A stretch of DNA of 8,328 nt from the NCBI RefSeq assembly GCF_056712565.1, contig NZ_JBWXXM010000005.1, one strand, 5' to 3'. The notes under the pieces are model-generated. The model was given only the letters and a program-made list of their open reading frames with translations. It was not told where the DNA came from and ran no database searches. Origin of the DNA: a plasmid. Made by a program: the position numbers and the translations under genes. This document shows positions 1-8,328 of the stretch, one piece after another; position 1 is the first letter of the stretch, and each line of letters starts with the position of its first letter.

Positions 1-486
1 ACCAAGAGGCACACCAACAATAAAACTAAACATTAATGCCACAATTTTTGCCACACCTACATCGACCGCACTTTTCTCCAGCGTGATAAACAAAGGTCGC
101 CAGTTACCAGTTTCTATTGCATTTTTAAAATCAGAACCAACATCATATAGAAAAGATACTCGACTGGTGATTTTAAGCGACTTTGATATCTTCGTTAAAT
201 TCTTAGATAACTCATCATAATTAACAGACTCTAACGCATTAAAAATAGCATCCCGATCAACCTTACTGAATTTCTTATCCAGTACATTCTTATACTTTTC
301 AAATGCTGCCAGAGCTTCATCAACACCTTGAATTTTCTTTCCTTTAGACTTTTCCGCTAAATCCTGAGCAATTTTTGCGTATTTTTCTCCATATTGTTCG
401 GTTATATATTGATAAAATCCAACCATAGTATCAACAGCATCTTTTATCTGGCTCTTTTCAAGAGCATCCTGAGCTTCTTTTAATTT
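1..486 (-). CDS. cka: Pore-forming (channel) domain segment of the colicin gene, open to the window start but out of frame with the upstream part; partial at window edge
   Basis: Reverse-complement translation in the frame whose codons occupy (3,2,1),(6,5,4)... is stop-free from 498 down to 1: [166 protein letters not shown]. This matches the colicin E1/Ia/K/5/10 channel domain as I recall it (not searched). That frame has a stop at 499..501, so it cannot join the upstream ORF without a 1-nt correction. Confidence 0.85.
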
Positions 487-1556
487 CTGCTCTGCCTCTT
501 AACCTCAGCGGCCTTACCATCCCTGAAACTAACAGCATTCTTAAGTTCATTTTCAACTGCGGAGTACTCAGCCTGCTTAGCTTCAAGCTGACGCTGTAGT
601 TTTTTCTGAACGTCACGCCATCCCGGAAATCCGGTGACCTTCACGTCAACACTCTTCTGAGCGTTTTCAAGCTCTCCTGCAACTCTGGAAACAGTAGCTT
701 GCTTACTCTGTACATCACTTTCAGCCTTCGCCAGTTCAGCTTTCGCCTCAGCTAAACGCTTCTCTGCTTCCGCCACCGCCTGTTTCTCTTCATTAAGAGT
801 TTCATGTTCAGCGACCTCTGCATTTTCACGAGCCTTTTCTTCAGCTTCCTTCTGTTTATTCACATCACCAATTTTACTTTGCAATGTATTTTTATAAGAA
901 TTAAGTTTGCTAATATCTGCATCAAGCTGATTTGATTTTTTTTGCAACTCATCAACATCCCTCTCAAGATCAGTGATACCATGATAAGAATGATGCTTGA
1001 ATACTTTTTTCATCTCCTCGATTTTCTTCTGTTTTTCACTAATCTGTGTAGCAATTTTATTCTTCTGCTTTTGTTTTTCATTAATTACATTACCCACCAC
1101 CTTCGAACTCTTATCCATATCACTGACCTGAGCATTCGTTGGTGCAGTATTAACTGAAGCAGTGTTATTGTTGTTATTTCCTGAGCTTTCTGCAAAAAGT
1201 GATGGCATATCACTAATTAAAGAATTAAGAACTCTGGAGACCCCTCCAAATGGATTATCAACCAGAGTTGAATTATCTTCTGTCATAACAATACCATTCA
1301 TCACCGGAAGGCCATCATTATTAATGACAACATCACCCCACGGAGTCAGATATGACTCACCGGTTTTCATCACAGTTGATGTAGAACCAGATGAATTTGA
1401 ATTTCCCTGACCACCATTATTACCATGCCCAGAGCCACCACCCCAGTGAACCCCACTATTACTATTATTATTTCCACCTTGCTGATTCAGATTCGCCCCT
1501 GTTCCCCCCATAGACTCACCAGCAGTTGGTCCATATCCACTTAGTTCTTTAGCCAT
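480..1556 (-). CDS. cka: Colicin, N-terminal translocation and central coiled-coil/receptor-binding part (358 codons), ending at a premature stop caused by a frameshift
   Basis: ORF track 480..1556 (-). Gly/Asn/Ser-rich N-terminus followed by [36 protein letters not shown]...[13 protein letters not shown], which closely resembles my recollection of the colicin A Tol-dependent translocation domain ([38 protein letters not shown]...RVLNSLV). A long K/E/A-rich coiled-coil follows. SD-like AGAGGA lies 7 nt upstream of the ATG (minus strand, + coords 1563..1568). Assignment to colicin K specifically is circumstantial: total length would be about 548 codons if the frameshift were repaired, and the immunity protein is 96 aa. 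Confidence 0.92.
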
Positions 1557-1600
1557 AAATTCCTCTTTGATAATTAAAACAATAAATTAAAAACAATATA

Positions 1601-1631
1601 CTGTACATATAACCACTGGTTTTATGTACAG
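1601..1631 (-). promoter_or_regulatory. Tandem overlapping LexA boxes (SOS operator) of the colicin promoter
   Basis: Minus-strand sequence CTGTACATAAAACCAGTGGTTATATGTACAG contains two overlapping CTGT-N8-(A/C)CAG motifs, the double SOS box typical of colicin promoters. It lies about 45 bp upstream of the colicin ATG. A candidate -35 TTGACA is at 1659..1664 (minus strand). Confidence 0.85.
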
Positions 1632-1796
1632 TAAAAACCTACTACTCAGCATTGTCCATGTCAAGAGCATGGATTTTCATTTTTGCAATAAGGATCACAC
1701 TATGGGGAGGCAGGCATTGAGAACGTCGAAACAGAACACCGGAGCAAATCAGGATGAGATATAAAACTGTTGGATCATGAAAAAACGGAGAACGAT

Positions 1797-2087
1797 GTGA
1801 GCAAATCACCCCGCCATAAACTGAACAAAACAGACAAACGACTTCTCGACACCCTTGTTGCTGCCGGATATGAGCATGACAAAGCCCGTGACCTCATCCA
1901 GAAACAGGTTTACACGCTGACACTGGCTGATCAGCGTCATGTGGTCAGTGAAATCAGTAATGGTGTGAATCCCACCCAGGCTTACTCGGCGGTATACCAG
2001 GCAAGACGCATTCGCCTCGCCCGTAAATATCTGAACGGTAAAAAGGTTATGGAAGAAACCGGGGAAAATACGCCCCCATCAGCGTAA
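1797..2087 (+). CDS. Hypothetical small basic protein (96 aa from GTG 1797; 105 aa if TTG 1770 is used)
   Basis: ORF track 1770..2087 (+). There is no in-frame ATG near the 5' end; GTG at 1797 is preceded by GGAG (1788..1791) at good spacing. The product is hydrophilic and basic (VSKSPRHKLNKTDKRLLDTLVAAGYEHDKARDLI...). I do not recognise a family and it could be non-coding. Confidence 0.25.
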   Translation: MSKSPRHKLNKTDKRLLDTLVAAGYEHDKARDLIQKQVYTLTLADQRHVVSEISNGVNPTQAYSAVYQARRIRLARKYLNGKKVMEETGENTPPSA

Positions 2088-2357
2088 GGATTTCTTTTGC
2101 CGCTCCAGAGACTCCAGTTTTTTACGCAAATCCTCTCTTTTTTGGGCATCTCTGGTGCCAGCCAGCTCTGCTCTCAACTCATCGATCTGAAGTTGTATCT
2201 TCAGTCTGTTACTGAACATTTTCTGTCTGGCATTAACATCCGCAACAATGCCGTTTTTTGTCTTCTCGGCCTTTTGTTGAAAAACATTGCTGTCCGCATG
2301 ACTGGCAACCGAAGCAGAAAGAACACTAAAAAGCAGGACTGGCACACATTTTTTCAC
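2079..2357 (-). CDS. Small secreted/periplasmic protein with Sec signal peptide (92 aa, GTG start); candidate entry-exclusion or envelope protein
   Basis: ORF track 2079..2357 (-). N-terminus MKKCVPVLLFSVLSASVASHA/DSNVF has the n-, h- and c-regions of a signal peptide with an A-x-A-type cleavage site. The ~71-aa mature part is highly charged and helical. GTG start with AGGA about 9 nt upstream. The opposite-strand ORF 2097..2402 looks like antisense noise. Confidence 0.45.
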   Translation of the reverse strand: MKKCVPVLLFSVLSASVASHADSNVFQQKAEKTKNGIVADVNARQKMFSNRLKIQLQIDELRAELAGTRDAQKREDLRKKLESLERQKKSLR

Positions 2358-2478
2358 GGGATTATTCCTGACTCATTGACCATCAAATCACATTGGGAGT
2401 AAACCGACGTATGATAAGAGATACTCTTCGGAGATATAACTCCCTGAGTATCAAGATTAAAAACGCAAGGAGATGTTT

Positions 2479-2901
2479 ATGAGATCTGCCGCTGCCAGGC
2501 TGCTTCTGATACCTCTGATAACAGCAACAATAGCTCTTACAGGATGCACACCAAAGACCAGCCTGGAACGACATACCCGGCATTATGTTTATGCTTCAGA
2601 TGATGGATTTGATCCTAACTTCTACACCCAGAAAGCAGACACCATACGTATGATGCTCCCGTTCTTTCAGCAGTTCCGGGATATGGGGATGAAAGACAAA
2701 GCAGCCGGAGTATCAGCAGAAACGGCACAGCAACGTGTAAAAGAATTCCACTCAGAAAAATTTTTTCACTCACTCCGGAGCACAACAGCCTTTGCTGGCA
2801 GAAAATACACAAACAGCGATATGCCTTCGCCGAAAAAAATGAAACTAATGGCAGACACCATTTCTGCGGTTTATCTCGATGGATACGAGGGCAGACAGTA
2901 A
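2479..2901 (+). CDS. Lipoprotein (140 aa), possible entry-exclusion-type protein of ColE1-like plasmids
   Basis: ORF track 2473..2901; I prefer ATG 2479 because the SD AAGGA (2467..2471) is 7 nt upstream. N-terminus MRSAAARLLLIPLITATIALTGC is a signal peptide ending in the lipobox L-T-G-C. The position between colicin promoter and mob genes is where ColE1 carries exc genes as I remember it; homology was not verified. Confidence 0.65.
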   Translation: MRSAAARLLLIPLITATIALTGCTPKTSLERHTRHYVYASDDGFDPNFYTQKADTIRMMLPFFQQFRDMGMKDKAAGVSAETAQQRVKEFHSEKFFHSLRSTTAFAGRKYTNSDMPSPKKMKLMADTISAVYLDGYEGRQ

Positions 2902-3274
2902 GGGATTTACCATAATCCCTTAATTGTACGCACCGCTGAAATGCGTTCAGCGCGATCACGGCTGCTGACAGGTAAAAATGGCAACAAACCACCCGAAAAG
3001 CTGCCGCGATCGCACCTGATAAATTTTAACCGTATGCATAGCTATTCAGCCATGTGAATAACGCTGGTTTTGCCTGCGTAAACCTCATGACACTGTTTTT
3101 TTTCCATCTTTTCAGTTGATGACATACGCAGACATCGCGGGATGAGGCTGAGGAATGAGCGCGATCTGGCAAAGAGGCAAAACACAGCAACAAAAACGAC
3201 ACGCCAGAATCGCGCCCGGATGCGTTTTTAACGCGTTCCGGTACCATCTGGCAACCTCCCGGAACAACTCACCG

Positions 3275-4873
3275 TCACATCCCTATTGACGGGCCACGCC
3301 ATACCCGTGCTTCCCGTTCCTGCTCTTCATGCCAGGACCGCGCACGCTCCCGTTCCAGGCGTGCCTGCCTTTCCTGTTCATCCCTTATCTGCTGTTCGTG
3401 ATAAATAACCGACTCAAGTGGTCCACCTGCCCGGCTAATCTCTGCACCTGCTGACTCAAGTCGTCGCACTGTTCCCTCAGTTGCCCGTTCTCCTGTCGTG
3501 TCAGCTCGAACATATGCTGCAAATCCGTGAAGGCGCTCTCCCAGTCTTTCAGCCGCTGCGTATAGTCCTGCTGCAATTGCTCTAAGGCGTTCAGTAAGTG
3601 CATTTCCAGCTCTGTCATACTCACTTACTCCCTGACCAGTCTTACTGCGTTCTTCTTCTCCACCGTCCAGTTGTTTTCCCCCTTCACCCCGGACGGCAAC
3701 ACCAGAAATTTCCCGTTCCTGCCCTCGTGATACGTCACACCCCATGTTTTTTCCCGGAGTTTCGCCAGCGTCTCTTCCTGGTCCCTGATAGCCAGGATGT
3801 TCGCCGCAATCCGGCTTTCCTGCCACTGAATCAGCCCCCATGACGCCAGAAAAATCCCGCCCGTGACGCAAAGCGCCGTCAGCGACGGGTACAGTATCCG
3901 CCCTTTGACCAGCTTCCAGAGCAGCTCTTCCTGCCGCCGGGCCAGTTCGTTCTCTGTGGCGCTGAACTGCGCGTTCACGGCACTGTTCAGCGTCTCCAGT
4001 TGTTCTTTCACCGCTGCTGTGTGTGCGCTGATAGCGTCTCTGATTTTCTGCCCGTTTAAGTTCAGTTCCCTGTCTACAGACGCTTCGAGCTTCCTGAACT
4101 CGCTGTTCAGCATGTTCTCTGTAGAGACGGCACGCTCTTTCAGTTTCTTCTCGAAGTCTGTCCCCATTTGTAAAAGATTGCTCATACAGCGCCCCTTTCA
4201 GCCTGAGATTACGCCCACCCTCCGGGTCGGCGATACTGATACTGCTCCTGGTTGTCCTCACAACCTCAAAACCTGCCGCTGTAAGCGCCTCAGTGACATC
4301 CTGACGCGTTTTTAGCGCTCCGGCATGGTAAAGAGCCTCCAGTCCCCTCGTAATCGCTTCTGCGGCCTCCTGTTTCGCTTTCGGCAGATTATTCGGGGTG
4401 ACAAGTGTCCGCCTGTTCTCCGGTGCGTTCGGGTCGTGCAGCCCGTAATGGTGATTCACCAGTGTCTGCCAGGCATTGATTCGCGGACGGTCCGCTCGGT
4501 CGTAATAGGGCTGGAGCCGTTTTCCGCTCGCCAGCTCCATATTCGGGATGACAAAATTCAGCTCAAGACGCCCCTTGTCCTGGTGCTCCACCCACAGGAT
4601 GCTGTACTGATTTTTTTCAAGACCGGGCATCAGTACCCGCTCAAAGCTCTCCATCACCCTTTCACGCTCTCCCGGTGGCAGGGTCTGCTCTGCAAAAGAC
4701 AGAACCCCCGAGGTGTATTTTTTCGCAAACGGCGTGGCATCGATGAGTTCCCGCACCTCTTCGGGAGCACCCCGCAGAACTCTCGCCCCTTCCCGGTTAC
4801 GCTCCCGGCCCAGCAGGTAATCAACCGGACCACTGCCACCGCCTTTTCCCCTGGCATGAAACTTAACTATCAT
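3275..4873 (-). CDS. mbeA: Mobilization relaxase MbeA (ColE1-type, MOB HEN family)
   Basis: ORF track 3275..4900 (-). From the internal Met it reads MIVKFHARGKGGGSGPVDYLLGRERNREGA...ILWVEHQDKGRLELNFVIPNMEL...QPYYDRADRPRINAWQ, matching ColE1 MbeA as I recall it. The ATG at 4873..4871 overlaps the mbeC stop in the usual coupled arrangement. The compositionally odd C-terminal half fits mbeB and mbeD being encoded in other frames. Confidence 0.92.
   Translation of the reverse strand: MIVKFHARGKGGGSGPVDYLLGRERNREGARVLRGAPEEVRELIDATPFAKKYTSGVLSFAEQTLPPGERERVMESFERVLMPGLEKNQYSILWVEHQDKGRLELNFVIPNMELASGKRLQPYYDRADRPRINAWQTLVNHHYGLHDPNAPENRRTLVTPNNLPKAKQEAAEAITRGLEALYHAGALKTRQDVTEALTAAGFEVVRTTRSSISIADPEGGRNLRLKGALYEQSFTNGDRLREETERACRLYREHAEQRVQEARSVCRQGTELKRAENQRRYQRTHSSGERTTGDAEQCRERAVQRHRERTGPAAGRAALEAGQRADTVPVADGALRHGRDFSGVMGADSVAGKPDCGEHPGYQGPGRDAGETPGKNMGCDVSRGQEREISGVAVRGEGGKQLDGGEEERSKTGQGVSEYDRAGNALTERLRAIAAGLYAAAERLGERLHGFAAYVRADTTGERATEGTVRRLESAGAEISRAGGPLESVIYHEQQIRDEQERQARLERERARSWHEEQEREARVWRGPSIGM
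3385..3618 (-). CDS. mbeD: Mobilization protein MbeD, nested within the 3' part of mbeA in another frame
   Basis: ORF track 3385..3624 (-), product M(S)MTELEMHLLNALEQLQQDYTQRLKDWESAFTDLQHMFELTRQENGQLREQCDDLSQQVQRLAGQVDHLSRLF. ATG at 3618 with GGGAG upstream; an alternative GTG at 3624 abuts the mbeB stop. Confidence 0.75.
   Translation of the reverse strand: MTELEMHLLNALEQLQQDYTQRLKDWESAFTDLQHMFELTRQENGQLREQCDDLSQQVQRLAGQVDHLSRLFITNSR
3625..4185 (-). CDS. mbeB: Mobilization protein MbeB, nested within mbeA in another frame
   Basis: ORF track 3625..4185 (-), product MSNLLQMGTDFEKKLKERAVSTENMLNSEFRKLEASVDREL... with a hydrophobic segment (LYPSLTALCVTGGIFLASWGLI). SD-like AAAGGGG upstream of the ATG. 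The stop abuts the mbeD start. Confidence 0.8.
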   Translation of the reverse strand: MSNLLQMGTDFEKKLKERAVSTENMLNSEFRKLEASVDRELNLNGQKIRDAISAHTAAVKEQLETLNSAVNAQFSATENELARRQEELLWKLVKGRILYPSLTALCVTGGIFLASWGLIQWQESRIAANILAIRDQEETLAKLREKTWGVTYHEGRNGKFLVLPSGVKGENNWTVEKKNAVRLVRE

Positions 4874-5210
4874 CCCGTTCTCCCTGTTTACGGACCTCAT
4901 CCCTCAGCTCACTCAGTTCACGTCCGATGGCCATCAGTGCAGCCACCACATGAACCCGGTCATGCCCCGACCACTGTCCGCTGTTTATCTTCCGGGCTAT
5001 CTGATTCAGGTTATTGCCGACCGAAGCGAACTGGCGCAACAGCGGCGGTGCCAGTGTCGGAAGACCTGACGTTTTCGATGGCGGTGCCCCCAGGCAGACC
5101 TTACGCATCCATGACGCAAGTTGTTTTCCCTCACAACGTGCCAGCAGCCGCGCATGTTCCTCATCCGTGACCCGTATCGTGAGCATCCTTTCGCGTTTCA
5201 CCGGTATCAT
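4863..5210 (-). CDS. mbeC: Mobilization accessory protein MbeC (relaxosome component)
   Basis: ORF track 4863..5363 (-). The conserved part MLTIRVTDEEHARLLARCEGKQLASWMRKVCLG...LAPPLLRQFASVGNNLNQIARKINSG...HVVAALMAIGRELSELR matches ColE1 MbeC/MobC as I recall it. Start chosen at ATG 5210 (GGAGG 7 nt upstream); ATG 5186 is an alternative. The first 52 codons of the track ORF are treated as spurious. Confidence 0.85.
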   Translation of the reverse strand: MIPVKRERMLTIRVTDEEHARLLARCEGKQLASWMRKVCLGAPPSKTSGLPTLAPPLLRQFASVGNNLNQIARKINSGQWSGHDRVHVVAALMAIGRELSELRDEVRKQGERDDS

Positions 5211-5253
5211 TAAAAACCTCCGACAGACTCCCCACACATGGAGAAACAGAACT

Positions 5254-5445
5254 GTGACTAAACAGGAAAAAACCGCCCTTAACATGGCCCGCTTCATCAG
5301 AAGCCAGACGCTGACCCTGCTGGAAAAACTGAATGAACTGGACGCCGACGACCAGGCTGACATCTGCGAAGCGCTTCACGACCACGCTGACGAGCTTTAC
5401 CGCAGCTGCCTCGCACGCTTCGGAGATGACGGTGAAAACCTCTGA
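5254..5445 (+). CDS. rop: Rop/Rom RNA one modulator protein (63 aa, GTG start)
   Basis: VTKQEKTALNMARFIRSQTLTLLEKLNELDADDQADICEALHDHADELYRSCLARFGDDGENL is near-identical to ColE1/pMB1 Rop as I recall it. GTG start at 5254 with GGAG about 10 nt upstream. The ORF-track entry 5014..5445 is an in-frame upstream extension with no support. Confidence 0.93.
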   Translation: MTKQEKTALNMARFIRSQTLTLLEKLNELDADDQADICEALHDHADELYRSCLARFGDDGENL

Positions 5446-5535
5446 CACATGCAGCTCCCGGAGACGGTCACAGCTGGCCTGTGAGCGGATGCCGGGAGCA
5501 GACAAGCCCGTCAGGGCGCGTCAGCGGGTTTTAGC

Positions 5536-5600
5536 GGGTGTCGGGGCGCAGCCATGACCCAGTCACGTAGCGATAGCGGAGTGTATACTGGCTTAATCAT
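5536..5600. other. bom / oriT region (basis of mobility) with relaxase nic region
   Basis: Sequence gggtgtcggggcgcagccatgacccagtcacgtagcgatagcggagtgtatactggcttaa corresponds to the pMB1/ColE1 bom region as I recall it, including the ...TATACTGGCTTAA... nic region. It sits between rop and the origin as in pBR322. Confidence 0.6.
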
Positions 5601-6253
5601 TTGGCATCAGTGAGGATTGTATGAAAAGTGCACCATGCCGGGTGTGAAATGCCGCACAGATGCGTAAGGAGAAAATGCTCGTCCAGGCGCTTTTCCGCTT
5701 CCTCGCTCACTGACTCGCTCCGCTCGGTCGTTCGGCTGCGGCGAGCGGTATCAGCTCACTCAAAGACGGTAATGCGGTTATCCACAGAATCAGGGGATAA
5801 CACCAAAAGAAACATGTGAGCAAAAAACAAGAACCCGGAAAAGGCCACGCAGCTGGCGTTTTTCCATAGGCTCCGCCCCCCTGACGAGCATCACAAAAAC
5901 CGACGCTCAAGTCAGAGGTGGCGAAACCCGACAGGACTTAAAGATACCAGGCGTTTCCCCCTGGTGGCTCCCTCGTGCGCTCTCCTGTTCCGACCCTGCC
6001 GCTTACCGGATACCTGTCCGCCTTTCTCCCTTTGGGAAGCGTGGCGCTTTCTCATAGCTCACGCTGTTGGTATCTCAGTTCGGTGTAGGTCGTTCGCTCC
6101 AAGCTGGGCTGTGTGCACGAACCCCCCGTTCAGCCCGACCGCTGCGCCTTATCCGGTAACTATCGTCTTGAGTCCAACCCGGTAAGACACGACTTAACGC
6201 CACTGGCAGCAGCCATTGGTAACTGGATAGTGGATTTAGATACGCAGAACTCT

Positions 6254-6281
6254 TGAAGTTGAAGCCTTATAGCGGCTACAC
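6254..6281 (+). promoter_or_regulatory. RNAI promoter (-35 TTGAAG, -10 TACACT)
   Basis: TTGAAG at 6254..6259, a 16-nt spacer, TACACT at 6276..6281, then the RNAI start about 6289. Same architecture as pMB1. Confidence 0.65.
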
Positions 6282-6288
6282 TGGAAGG

Positions 6289-6392
6289 ACAGCATTTGGT
6301 ATCTGTGCTCCACTAAAGCCAGTTACCCGGTTAAGCAGTCCCCAACTGACTTAACCTTCGACTAAACCGCCTCCCCAGGCGGTTTTTTCGTT
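6289..6392 (+). ncRNA. RNAI antisense copy-number control RNA
   Basis: Starts at ACAGCATTTGGTATCTG (pMB1 RNAI starts ACAGTATTTGGTATCTG) and ends at the hairpin plus T-run ...ccgcctccccaggcggttttttcgtt. Its promoter has -35 TTGAAG (6254..6259) and -10 TACACT (6276..6281) as in pMB1. Loop sequences differ from pMB1. Confidence 0.8.
6364..6392 (+). terminator. RNAI intrinsic terminator
   Basis: Stem aaaccgcct / aggcggttt with loop cccc, followed by a T-run (ttttttcgtt). Confidence 0.7.
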
Positions 6393-6402
6393 TACAGGCA
6401 GC

Positions 6403-6432
6403 AGATTACGCGCAGAAAAAAAGGATCTCAAG
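6403..6432 (-). promoter_or_regulatory. RNAII promoter (-35 TTGAGA, -10 TAATCT on minus strand)
   Basis: Minus-strand sequence cttcTTGAGAtcctttttttctgcgcgTAATCTgctgcctGTAAAC has a 17-nt spacer and matches the pMB1 RNAII promoter as I recall it. Confidence 0.7.
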
Positions 6433-6454
6433 AAGATCCTTTGATCTTTTCTAC

Positions 6455-6459
6455 TGAAC
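6455..6459. repeat. IS2 target-site duplication (TGAAC), right-end copy
   Basis: TGAAC immediately outside the IS2 end at 6460; an identical TGAAC lies at 7791..7795 outside the other end. IS2 is known to make 5-bp duplications. Confidence 0.85.
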
Positions 6460-6500
6460 TGGATTTGCCCCTATATTTCCAGACACCTGTTATCACTTAA
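6460..6500. repeat. IS2 terminal inverted repeat (IRR)
   Basis: Imperfect inverted repeat partner of 7749..7790; shared core CCAGACA...ATATCACTTA. Confidence 0.8.
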
Positions 6501-7376
6501 CCCATTACTGGCTTGCTGCCGTAGATATTCCCGTGGCGAGCGATAACCCAGTGCACTATGCGGATGCCATTCGTTATAATGCTCGAACGCCTCTGCAAGG
6601 TTCTTTGCTGCCGTTAACCCGTCTGGTTTGGGCATGACACTGATGTAGTCACGCTTTATCGTTTTCACGAAGCTCTCTGCTATGCCGTTACTCTCCGGAC
6701 TCCGCACCGCCGTGCTCTTCGGTTCAAGCCCCAACATCCGGGCAAACTGCCGTGTTTCATTAGCCCGGTAGCATGAACCATTATCCGTCAGCCACTCTAC
6801 TGGAGACGCCGGAAGCTCGTTGCCGAAGCGGCGTTCCACCGCTCCCAGCATGACGTCCTGTACTGTTTCACTGTTGAAGCCGCCCGTAGTGACCGCCCAG
6901 TGCAGTGCCTCACGGTCACAGCAGTCCAGCGCGAACGTGACTCGCAGTTTTTCTCCGTTATCACAGCGGAACTCGAACCCGTCAGAGCACCATCGCTGAT
7001 TACTTTCTTTCACAGCCACTCTGCCTGTATGTGCCCGTTTCGATGGCGGTACAGCAGGTTTTCGCTCAAGCAACAGCGCATTCTGGCGCATGATCCGGTA
7101 AACACGTTTGGCATTGATCGCAGGCATACCATCAAGTTCTGCCTGTCTGCGAAGCAGCGCCCATACCCGACGATAACCATACGTGGGCAGCTCTCCGATA
7201 ACATGGTGTATACGGAGAAGCACATCCGTATCATCAGTGTGACGACTGCGGCGGCCATCCATCCAGTCATCGGTTCGTCTGAGAATGACGTGCAACTGCG
7301 CACGCGACACCCGGAGACAACGGCTGACTAAGCTTACTCCCCATCCCCGGGCAATAAGGGCGCGTGCGCTATCCAC
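6471..7376 (-). CDS. insD: IS2 transposase OrfB (InsD), normally expressed as an OrfAB fusion by -1 frameshifting
   Basis: ORF track 6471..7376 (-) 301 aa, (M/V)[33 protein letters not shown]...[12 protein letters not shown]... with a DDE-type integrase core (...[37 protein letters not shown]...). The first codon is GTG and overlaps the end of insC. Confidence 0.95.
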
Positions 7377-7699
7377 TTTTTTGCCCGTCCATATTCAACG
7401 GCTTCTTTGAGGAGTTCATTTTCCATCGTTTTCTTGCCGAGCAGGCGCTGGAGTTCTTTAATCTGCTTCATGGCGGCAGCAAGTTCAGAGGCAGGAACAA
7501 CCTGTTCTCCGGCGGCGACAGCAGTAAGACTTCCTTCCTGGTATTGCTTACGCCAGAGAAATAACTGGCTGGCTGCTACACCATGTTGCCGGGCAACGAG
7601 GGAGACCGTCATCCCTGGTTCAAAGCTCTGCTGAACAATTGCGATCTTTTCCTGTGTGGTACGCCGTCTGCGTTTCTCCGGTCCTAAGACATCAATCAT
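7334..7699 (-). CDS. insC: IS2 OrfA (InsC), helix-turn-helix regulator / N-terminal part of the transposase
   Basis: From ATG at 7699: [58 protein letters not shown]...[26 protein letters not shown]. The 15 extra N-terminal codons in the track ORF 7334..7744 are rejected. Confidence 0.93.
7377..7383 (-). other. IS2 programmed -1 ribosomal frameshift heptamer (A AAA AAG) at the insC/insD overlap
   Basis: Minus-strand sequence ggcA AAA AAG tgg is in the OrfA zero frame. A -1 slip reads AAA AAA GTG GAT AGC = KKVDS..., continuing into InsD. This is a known IS3-family mechanism. Confidence 0.7.
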
Positions 7700-7748
7700 C
7701 TGCTCTCCAATGACTAGTCTAAAAACTAGTATTAAGACTATCACTTAA

Positions 7749-7790
7749 ATAAGTGATATTGGTTGTCTGGAGATTCAGGGGGCCAGTCTA
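7749..7790. repeat. IS2 terminal inverted repeat (IRL)
   Basis: Reverse complement from 7790 reads TAGACTGGCCCCCTGAATCTCCAGACAACCAATATCACTTA... The lysis-gene reading frame terminates inside this repeat at TGA 7775..7777. Confidence 0.8.
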
Positions 7791-7918
7791 TGAACCGCGA
7801 TCCCCGTCAGTTCAGAAGACGAAGATGGTGCAACGGTTCCTCCTTGTACATCACGAATATAGTTTGCTTGACATCCTGACAAGAATAATATTGTAATTAG
7901 AAAAATTATTATTTTCAT
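7775..7918 (-). CDS. ckl: Colicin lysis (bacteriocin release) lipoprotein, with its 3' end altered by the IS2 insertion (47 codons; ends ...GIAV-HRLAP)
   Basis: Not in the ORF track (short). Reverse complement of 7793..7918 translates [42 protein letters not shown], with signal peptide, lipobox L-S-G-C and the [14 protein letters not shown] motif typical of colicin lysis proteins. Reading continues across the TSD into the IS2 IRL (H R L A P, stop TGA at 7775..7777). The displaced native end (Q codon and TAG) lies at 6451..6456 on the other side of IS2. Confidence 0.8.
7791..7795. repeat. IS2 target-site duplication (TGAAC), left-end copy
   Basis: TGAAC directly abutting the IS2 end at 7790; identical to 6455..6459. 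Confidence 0.85.
7868..7897 (+). promoter_or_regulatory. Candidate immunity-gene promoter located inside the lysis-gene coding region
   Basis: TTGACA at 7868..7873, an 18-nt spacer, TGTAAT at 7892..7897, about 50 bp upstream of the immunity ATG at 7948. Confidence 0.4.
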
Positions 7919-7947: not shown

Positions 7948-8238
7948 ATGCATTTAAAATACTACCTACATAATTTACCTGAATCACTTATACCATGGAT
8001 TCTTATTTTAATATTTAACGACAATGATAACACTCCTTTGTTATTTATATTTATATCATCAATACATGTATTGCTATATCCATACTCTAAATTAACCATA
8101 TCTAGATATATCAAAGAAAATACAAAGTTAAAAAAAGAACCCTGGTACTTATGCAAGTTATCTGCATTGTTTTATTTATTAATGGCAATCCCAGTAGGAT
8201 TGCCAAGTTTCATATATTACACTCTAAAGAGAAATTAA
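7948..8238 (+). CDS. cki: Pore-forming colicin immunity protein (96 aa, integral inner-membrane protein)
   Basis: ORF track 7948..8238 (+). Very AT-rich and hydrophobic (…[33 protein letters not shown]…[26 protein letters not shown]), consistent with several membrane spans. It is convergent with the colicin gene and sits between colicin and lysis genes on the opposite strand, the canonical arrangement for pore-former immunity genes. Its stop (8236..8238) overlaps the colicin stop (8235..8237). Confidence 0.8.
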
Positions 8239-8328
8239 ATCCCTAACAACTCATTAAGTTTGCTCAACTCATCATCCCCTATGTAAGAAGAAACAATACC
8301 TGTGACAATTGCAATCCCCCAGAAACCA
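8235..8328 (-). CDS. cka: C-terminal tail of the colicin gene (last 29 codons plus stop), continuing from the window start across the circular junction
   Basis: Reverse complement of 8235..8327 translates [30 protein letters not shown]-stop, the end of the hydrophobic hairpin and C-terminus of a pore-forming colicin. The stop TAA is the reverse complement of 8235..8237. Window 8325..8328 (acca) equals window 1..4 (acca), and joining 8324 to 1 gives a continuous ...[15 protein letters not shown]... reading frame. Confidence 0.75.

Follow-up and report, generated by a model that had tools for sequence, protein, structure and literature searches.

A one-base frameshift in the colicin K gene of an IS2-bearing pColK plasmid record

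The stretch of DNA analyzed here (the window, 8,328 nucleotides in full) is a whole ColE1-type colicin K plasmid of the pColK family, one of a lineage in which IS2 has inserted into the final codons of the lysis gene. Its colicin gene, cka, lacks one A of the AAA run at codons 353/354, which breaks the gene by shifting the frame after K353. As judged from its sequence, cka as written would be classed as a pseudogene or a mis-sequenced gene, not as a functional member of the colicin K group. On our reading that leads by a small margin, and to which we give about an even chance, the base is missing through an error of consensus or base calling, and the real plasmid encodes a normal 548-aa colicin K. 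An earlier note on this DNA had left the choice between a base-calling error and a genuine inactivation open, which is still the right position.

The plasmid and its split colicin gene

A megablast search with window positions 1..1700 returned ~35 near-full-length plasmid matches, the reference plasmid pColK-K235 (NC_006881.1) among them, and most matches show 99.2–99.9% identity to a gene annotated as “cka: pore-forming bacteriocin colicin K.” Taken as a whole, the window amounts to one full pColK-type plasmid: the circle measures 8,324 bp, and four bases are duplicated at the ends, as is apparent from an end-to-end alignment (8,329 columns) with the doubled 8,325-bp circle of ABGHSQ010000092.1. 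The earlier note was right that the channel-domain frame stays open to the edge of the window, but because the plasmid is circular, the gene does not end there: its last 29 codons and stop lie across the junction at 8324..8235. The ACCA redundancy falls within cka, and a naive circular join of all 8,328 bases creates a second, spurious cka frameshift, which in the naive-join translation would hit the hydrophobic hairpin of Cka. The features on which the argument draws are as follows.

1..498, minus strand: cka downstream of the lesion, read in the -1 frame, Cka E354-G519, the larger share of the pore-forming domain with the beginning of its hydrophobic hairpin
480..1556, minus strand: 5' part of cka, an ORF of 358 aa comprising Cka residues 1-353 plus an RQSRN tail, with TAA at 482..480
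499..500, minus strand: lesion site, AA left where every relative has AAA, one base deleted
1616..1631, minus strand: LexA-box consensus CTGTACATAAAACCAG in the cka promoter region (CTG-N10-CAG, a pattern match only)
6291..6391, plus strand: RNAI, antisense regulator of the ColE1-type replicon (Rfam RF00106, 77.4 bits against a gathering score of 47)
6460..7790, minus strand: IS2, 1,331 bp, in codons 42-43 of the lysis gene, with the TGAAC duplication at 6455-6459 and 7791-7795
7775..7918, minus strand: colicin release (lysis) gene, Pfam Lysis_col, signal peptide and lipobox Cys intact
7948..8238, plus strand: cki, gene for immunity to colicin K (96 aa), intact; it converges on cka, whose stop codon it overlaps by 4 nt
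8235..8324, minus strand: last 29 codons of cka and its TAA, continuing from window base 1 over the circular junction
8325..8328: terminal redundancy ACCA, a 4-nt copy of 1..4, a circularization leftover outside the true plasmid

As written, the 5' ORF starts with the ATG at 1556 on the minus strand, and the -1 frame, after a TAA at 501..499, is free of stops down to window base 1; both the ORF from 1556 to 480 and the stop in the other frame are thus present as the earlier note had them. Gapped alignments with four independent plasmids (NC_006881.1, CP088446.1, pVR50C and ABGHSQ010000092.1) each put one gap, a single base long, at an identical position in cka. Where the relatives read GAG GTT AAA GAG GCA GAG CAG, with AAA as the Lys353 codon followed by GAG, the window reads GAG GTT AAG AGG CAG AGC AG; the window (AA) allele in context is GTTAAGAGG and the intact (AAA) allele GTTAAAGAGG. 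The alignment to a colicin K reference proposed in the earlier note has in this way located the indel in the AAA run at codons 353/354. Its proposal of one single-base indel stands, but its placement within 483..498 is off by one to two bases, as the gap lies at 499-500, inside the wider interval 483..501. Apart from this gap both pieces of cka are colinear, base for base, with pColK cka, and the split gene is therefore not a product of chance.

Re-inserting the A gives exactly 548 codons, where the earlier note had summed the pieces to about 548, and a 548-aa Cka of 59.6 kDa that is identical to the Cka of ABGHSQ010000092.1. From the Cka of pColK-K235 the repaired protein differs at 2 of the 548 residues, which bears out the assignment of the gene to colicin K.

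The domain layout explains what the break would cost. The 5' part of cka holds the Tol-dependent translocation region and the central coiled-coil receptor-binding region: Pfam ColA_N matches Cka residues 71-114, and the N-terminus aligns with the structures of colicin A bound to TolB (3IAX, residues 25-120) and to TolA (3QDR, 64-117). The channel domain is recognized by Pfam Colicin PF01024 over Cka 364-545 (model positions 4-185 of 185, E = 2e-31), and the colicin E1 channel structure, PDB 2I88, aligns to Cka 359-548 (E = 4e-72). As the earlier note had it, then, an intact pore-forming domain begins just downstream of the split, yet its coding sequence is out of frame with the start of the gene. 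With the shift lying upstream of the channel domain, the product as written would be a translocation and receptor-binding fragment with no killing domain, and its computed mass of 38.6 kDa for 358 aa agrees with the ~38 kDa expected earlier. Set beside pore-forming colicins of the E1/Ia/A type (PF01024; PDB 2I88, 1CII, 1COL), the -1 frame encodes a complete channel domain, full-length relative to that of colicin E1; unlike in those colicins, this domain is severed from the translocation and receptor-binding regions. A continuous frame linking the translocation, receptor-binding and pore domains is absent from the window as written, which encodes no killing-competent protein.

An internal start at M378 was considered as the source of a possible 171-aa pore fragment; such a fragment would have neither the translocation nor the receptor-binding region, and so could not enter target cells. 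A scan of the NCBIfam models returned no scoring model for colicin K, cki or the lysis protein, the coiled-coil noise (SMC, Rad50) being far under the cut-offs.

Upstream of cka, a second, more degenerate LexA box overlaps the first and extends to about 1600; from colicin promoters generally, we take these boxes to place the operon under SOS control. The immunity gene matches the cki annotated in CP088446.1 with 100% identity, and the copy in ABGHSQ010000092.1 carries Pfam CKI. The IS2 element, a member of the IS3 family with terminal inverted repeats and the ends TGGATTTGCCCC... and TAGACTGGCCCC..., shares 97.7% identity with the IS2 annotated in NC_006881.1, and it alters the end of the lysis protein from ...GIAVQ-stop to ...GIAVHRLAP-stop (47 aa versus 43). 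On look-up, this 47-aa variant turned up in five contigs at NCBI, ABGHSQ010000092.1 among them; they come from E. coli and Salmonella and have the same IS2 insertion, which indicates that the lineage circulates. The element also parts the lysis gene from its downstream sequence. Within IS2, orfA (7334..7744) and orfB (6471..7376) meet at an A6 run (7377-7382, minus strand) at the orfA/orfB overlap. This run is the element's own programmed -1 frameshift site, and contrasts with the break in cka.

The middle of the window holds ColE1-type mob genes, among them an open MbeA-like relaxase ORF of 541 aa (3275-4900). In relatives the RefSeq annotation gives only a short partial pseudogene for the MbeA-like gene, apparently a consequence of the nesting of mbeB and mbeD inside it in another frame.

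Relatives of the plasmid and searches for the deleted allele

The nearest relative is ABGHSQ010000092.1 (E. coli assembly GCA_023519835.1, 8,325 bp), which was assembled independently and matches all 8,328 bases of the window save for the missing A. The match takes in the replicon, the mob genes and cki as well as IS2, together with its place in the lysis gene and the 5-bp duplication there. Unlike the window, this sibling has AAA, a single 548-aa cka ORF and no 4-nt terminal overlap. An otherwise identical plasmid with an intact cka implies that the ancestral state of this plasmid lineage is intact, in keeping with the earlier description of the gene as recently intact.

Other members of the family share the backbone. 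pColK-K235, the reference cka-cki-lysis plasmid, has the backbone and operon layout of the window and likewise carries IS2, but at a different site (868-2198 of NC_006881.1, upstream of cka, equivalent to about 1879-1884 in the window), and its cka and lysis genes are intact. The different site, together with an IS2 identity of only the 97.7% given above, indicates that the two plasmids acquired IS2 independently. The IS-free pColK plasmids of 6,988/6,989 bp (for example pVR50C, NZ_CP011137.1, and pSCU-103-4, CP054461.1) and CP088446.1 have backbones 99.8-100% identical to that of the window; unlike the window, they have no IS2, and both cka and the lysis gene are intact. CP088446.1, the closest IS2-free relative, is set apart from the window backbone by nothing but one substitution and the cka deletion, and carries ISEcp1-blaCTX-M-14 between cki and the lysis gene (5741-9908). 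NZ_CP062872.1 carries ISCro1. The small colicin K plasmid is thus a recurrent landing site for mobile elements, a resistance gene included.

Several records call for comment in their own right. Relative to window positions 1879-6459, NC_006881.1 is short of eight single bases, seven C/G in the mob/replication region and one T at ~5969, and at these places CP088446.1 and pVR50C have no gaps against the window. The old NC_006881.1 record probably contains Sanger compression errors, which may be the reason that mbeA and mbeC are not listed for it. NZ_JBTZOV010000003.1 (1-20971) is a linear RefSeq concatemer of ~3 pColK copies with many single-base indels between them, such that some copies have an intact cka and mbeB while in others these genes appear “frameshifted”; the differences are clearly assembly errors. 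CP057719.1 was considered as a second cka pseudogene and rejected, its cka spanning the record origin and being omitted from the PLSDB table. The records listed with “cka (x2)” are uninformative on the natural decay of cka, one being a dimer with a shortened copy and the other the long-read concatemer NZ_JBTZOV010000003.1, whose copies disagree.

The deleted allele was sought with a 41-nt query centered on the deletion, which cannot seed on the AAA allele; megablast with this query gave 0 matches in 72,556 PLSDB plasmid records and 5,426 complete E. coli genomes. The corresponding AAA control query, run against the same collections, matched 37 of the plasmid records and 37 of the genomes, with an unsplit frame in all 74. 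An exact 37-mer of the AA allele is absent from IMG/VR and the JGI metagenomes, and an index of 153 billion gene positions has no entry for the exact 358-aa product or for the C-terminal partial product of 142 aa. A literature search covering pColK-K235, colicin K frameshift or truncation and non-producers found no natural cka frameshift.

Sequencing error, recent mutation or recoding

That the lesion is an artefact we infer in the first place from its isolation: over the 8,328 aligned bases it is the sole difference from the intact sibling, and the AA allele is private to this record in every collection searched. The same two facts weigh against a genuine deletion, as an event that left no further difference from the sibling would have to be extremely recent, and its allele appears in no other record or index searched. 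The record is also imperfectly circularized, its start and end overlapping by 4 nt. Short-read assemblers leave end overlaps of k-mer size or none, and an overlap of 4 nt is unlike the k-mer-sized kind. In long-read assembly of circular replicons a start-end overlap is a recognized outcome, and the small errors left in such assemblies are mostly single-base indels (PMC6966772). The imperfect circularization hints, to the same effect, at an unpolished or hand-finished record, which tells against a real mutation. Error-made cka frameshifts do exist within the pColK family, the copies in NZ_JBTZOV010000003.1 standing in differing states. Finally, a null cka on a multicopy plasmid would presumably be recessive, and it is the lysis gene, not cka, that would kill producers, so selection for the null allele would be weak; a real null allele must moreover take over all of the copies in the cell.

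Against an error stands the quality of the rest of the record, which is otherwise flawless: 23 of the 23 homopolymers of at least 6 nt, two 8-mers included, agree with the sibling. Systematic long-read error is expected in long runs rather than in one of 3 nt, no GATC or CCWGG methylation motif adjoins the deletion site, and assemblies that are polished or built from short reads seldom carry indel errors in their consensus. Costly toxin genes, for their part, do lose function naturally. The alternative, to which we assign somewhat under an even chance, is a very recent spontaneous -1 frameshift that has made this copy of the plasmid an immune non-producer. Under such a mutation LexA-controlled transcription would persist and translation would stop at 482..480 to yield a harmless 358-aa fragment; the pore domain would go untranslated, cki would still protect the host, and the lysis gene downstream may be expressed less, through translational polarity over the final 585 nt of cka. 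A sequence free of errors elsewhere, down to its long homopolymers, gives no sign of a noisy assembly and so favors this alternative, as does the repeated disruption of the operon in relatives: IS2 sits in the lysis gene both here and in five other contigs, with the ISEcp1-blaCTX-M-14 insertion of CP088446.1 and the IS2 upstream of cka in pColK-K235 as further cases. Immune non-producers are an expected outcome in colicin ecology, and a real deletion would fit that expectation. It is set back by the place of the lesion, since a 3-nt run is a poor mutational hotspot and the same gene has an A8 run at 936-943. The short run being unlikely under both error and mutation models, the position of the indel does not discriminate between them.

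A reading in which neither error nor damage is involved, namely that a programmed -1 ribosomal frameshift or transcriptional slippage yields both a shortened and a full-length colicin, has next to no probability in our estimate. Restoring the frame would indeed take a -1 shift, and the window does hold a true recoding site in the IS2 A6 run (7377-7382), but that site lies elsewhere, and nothing at the cka site itself speaks for recoding. The permissive interval 501..480 (TAAGAGGCAGAGCAGAAATTAA) contains no X XXY YYZ heptamer, and its longest run is A4. Nor is the split conserved: one continuous ORF crosses the site in 74 of the 74 comparison records, and the sibling, identical to the window at every other base, has an unsplit cka. 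With no slippery site and no relative that shares the split, recoding is rejected.

A more elaborate version of the genuine deletion would make it the second step, after the IS2 hit, toward an immunity-only “cheater” plasmid, and would give the 358-aa fragment an SOS-induced function of its own, for example occupying Tsx and the Tol proteins of neighboring kin, which would block colicin K or phage that depend on Tsx. We regard this combination as very improbable.

Implications for the record and for colicin K plasmids

The colicin K operon and this small type of E. coli plasmid are well known, the lineage with IS2 in the lysis gene is already present in public assemblies, and a one-base frameshift in cka, being either an ordinary event or a sequencing error, is not novel. 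The consequence beyond annotation is small. There is a caution in it: where a record agrees with an intact sibling in everything but one frameshifting base of a toxin gene, that difference is to be read as biology only with the sequencing reads in hand. If the missing base is an artefact, as our leading reading has it, the record should be corrected and the plasmid counted among those that produce colicin K. Were the deletion real, the host would make no colicin but stay immune, a condition that colicin ecology has long led one to expect and that the most ordinary kind of mutation would have brought about here.
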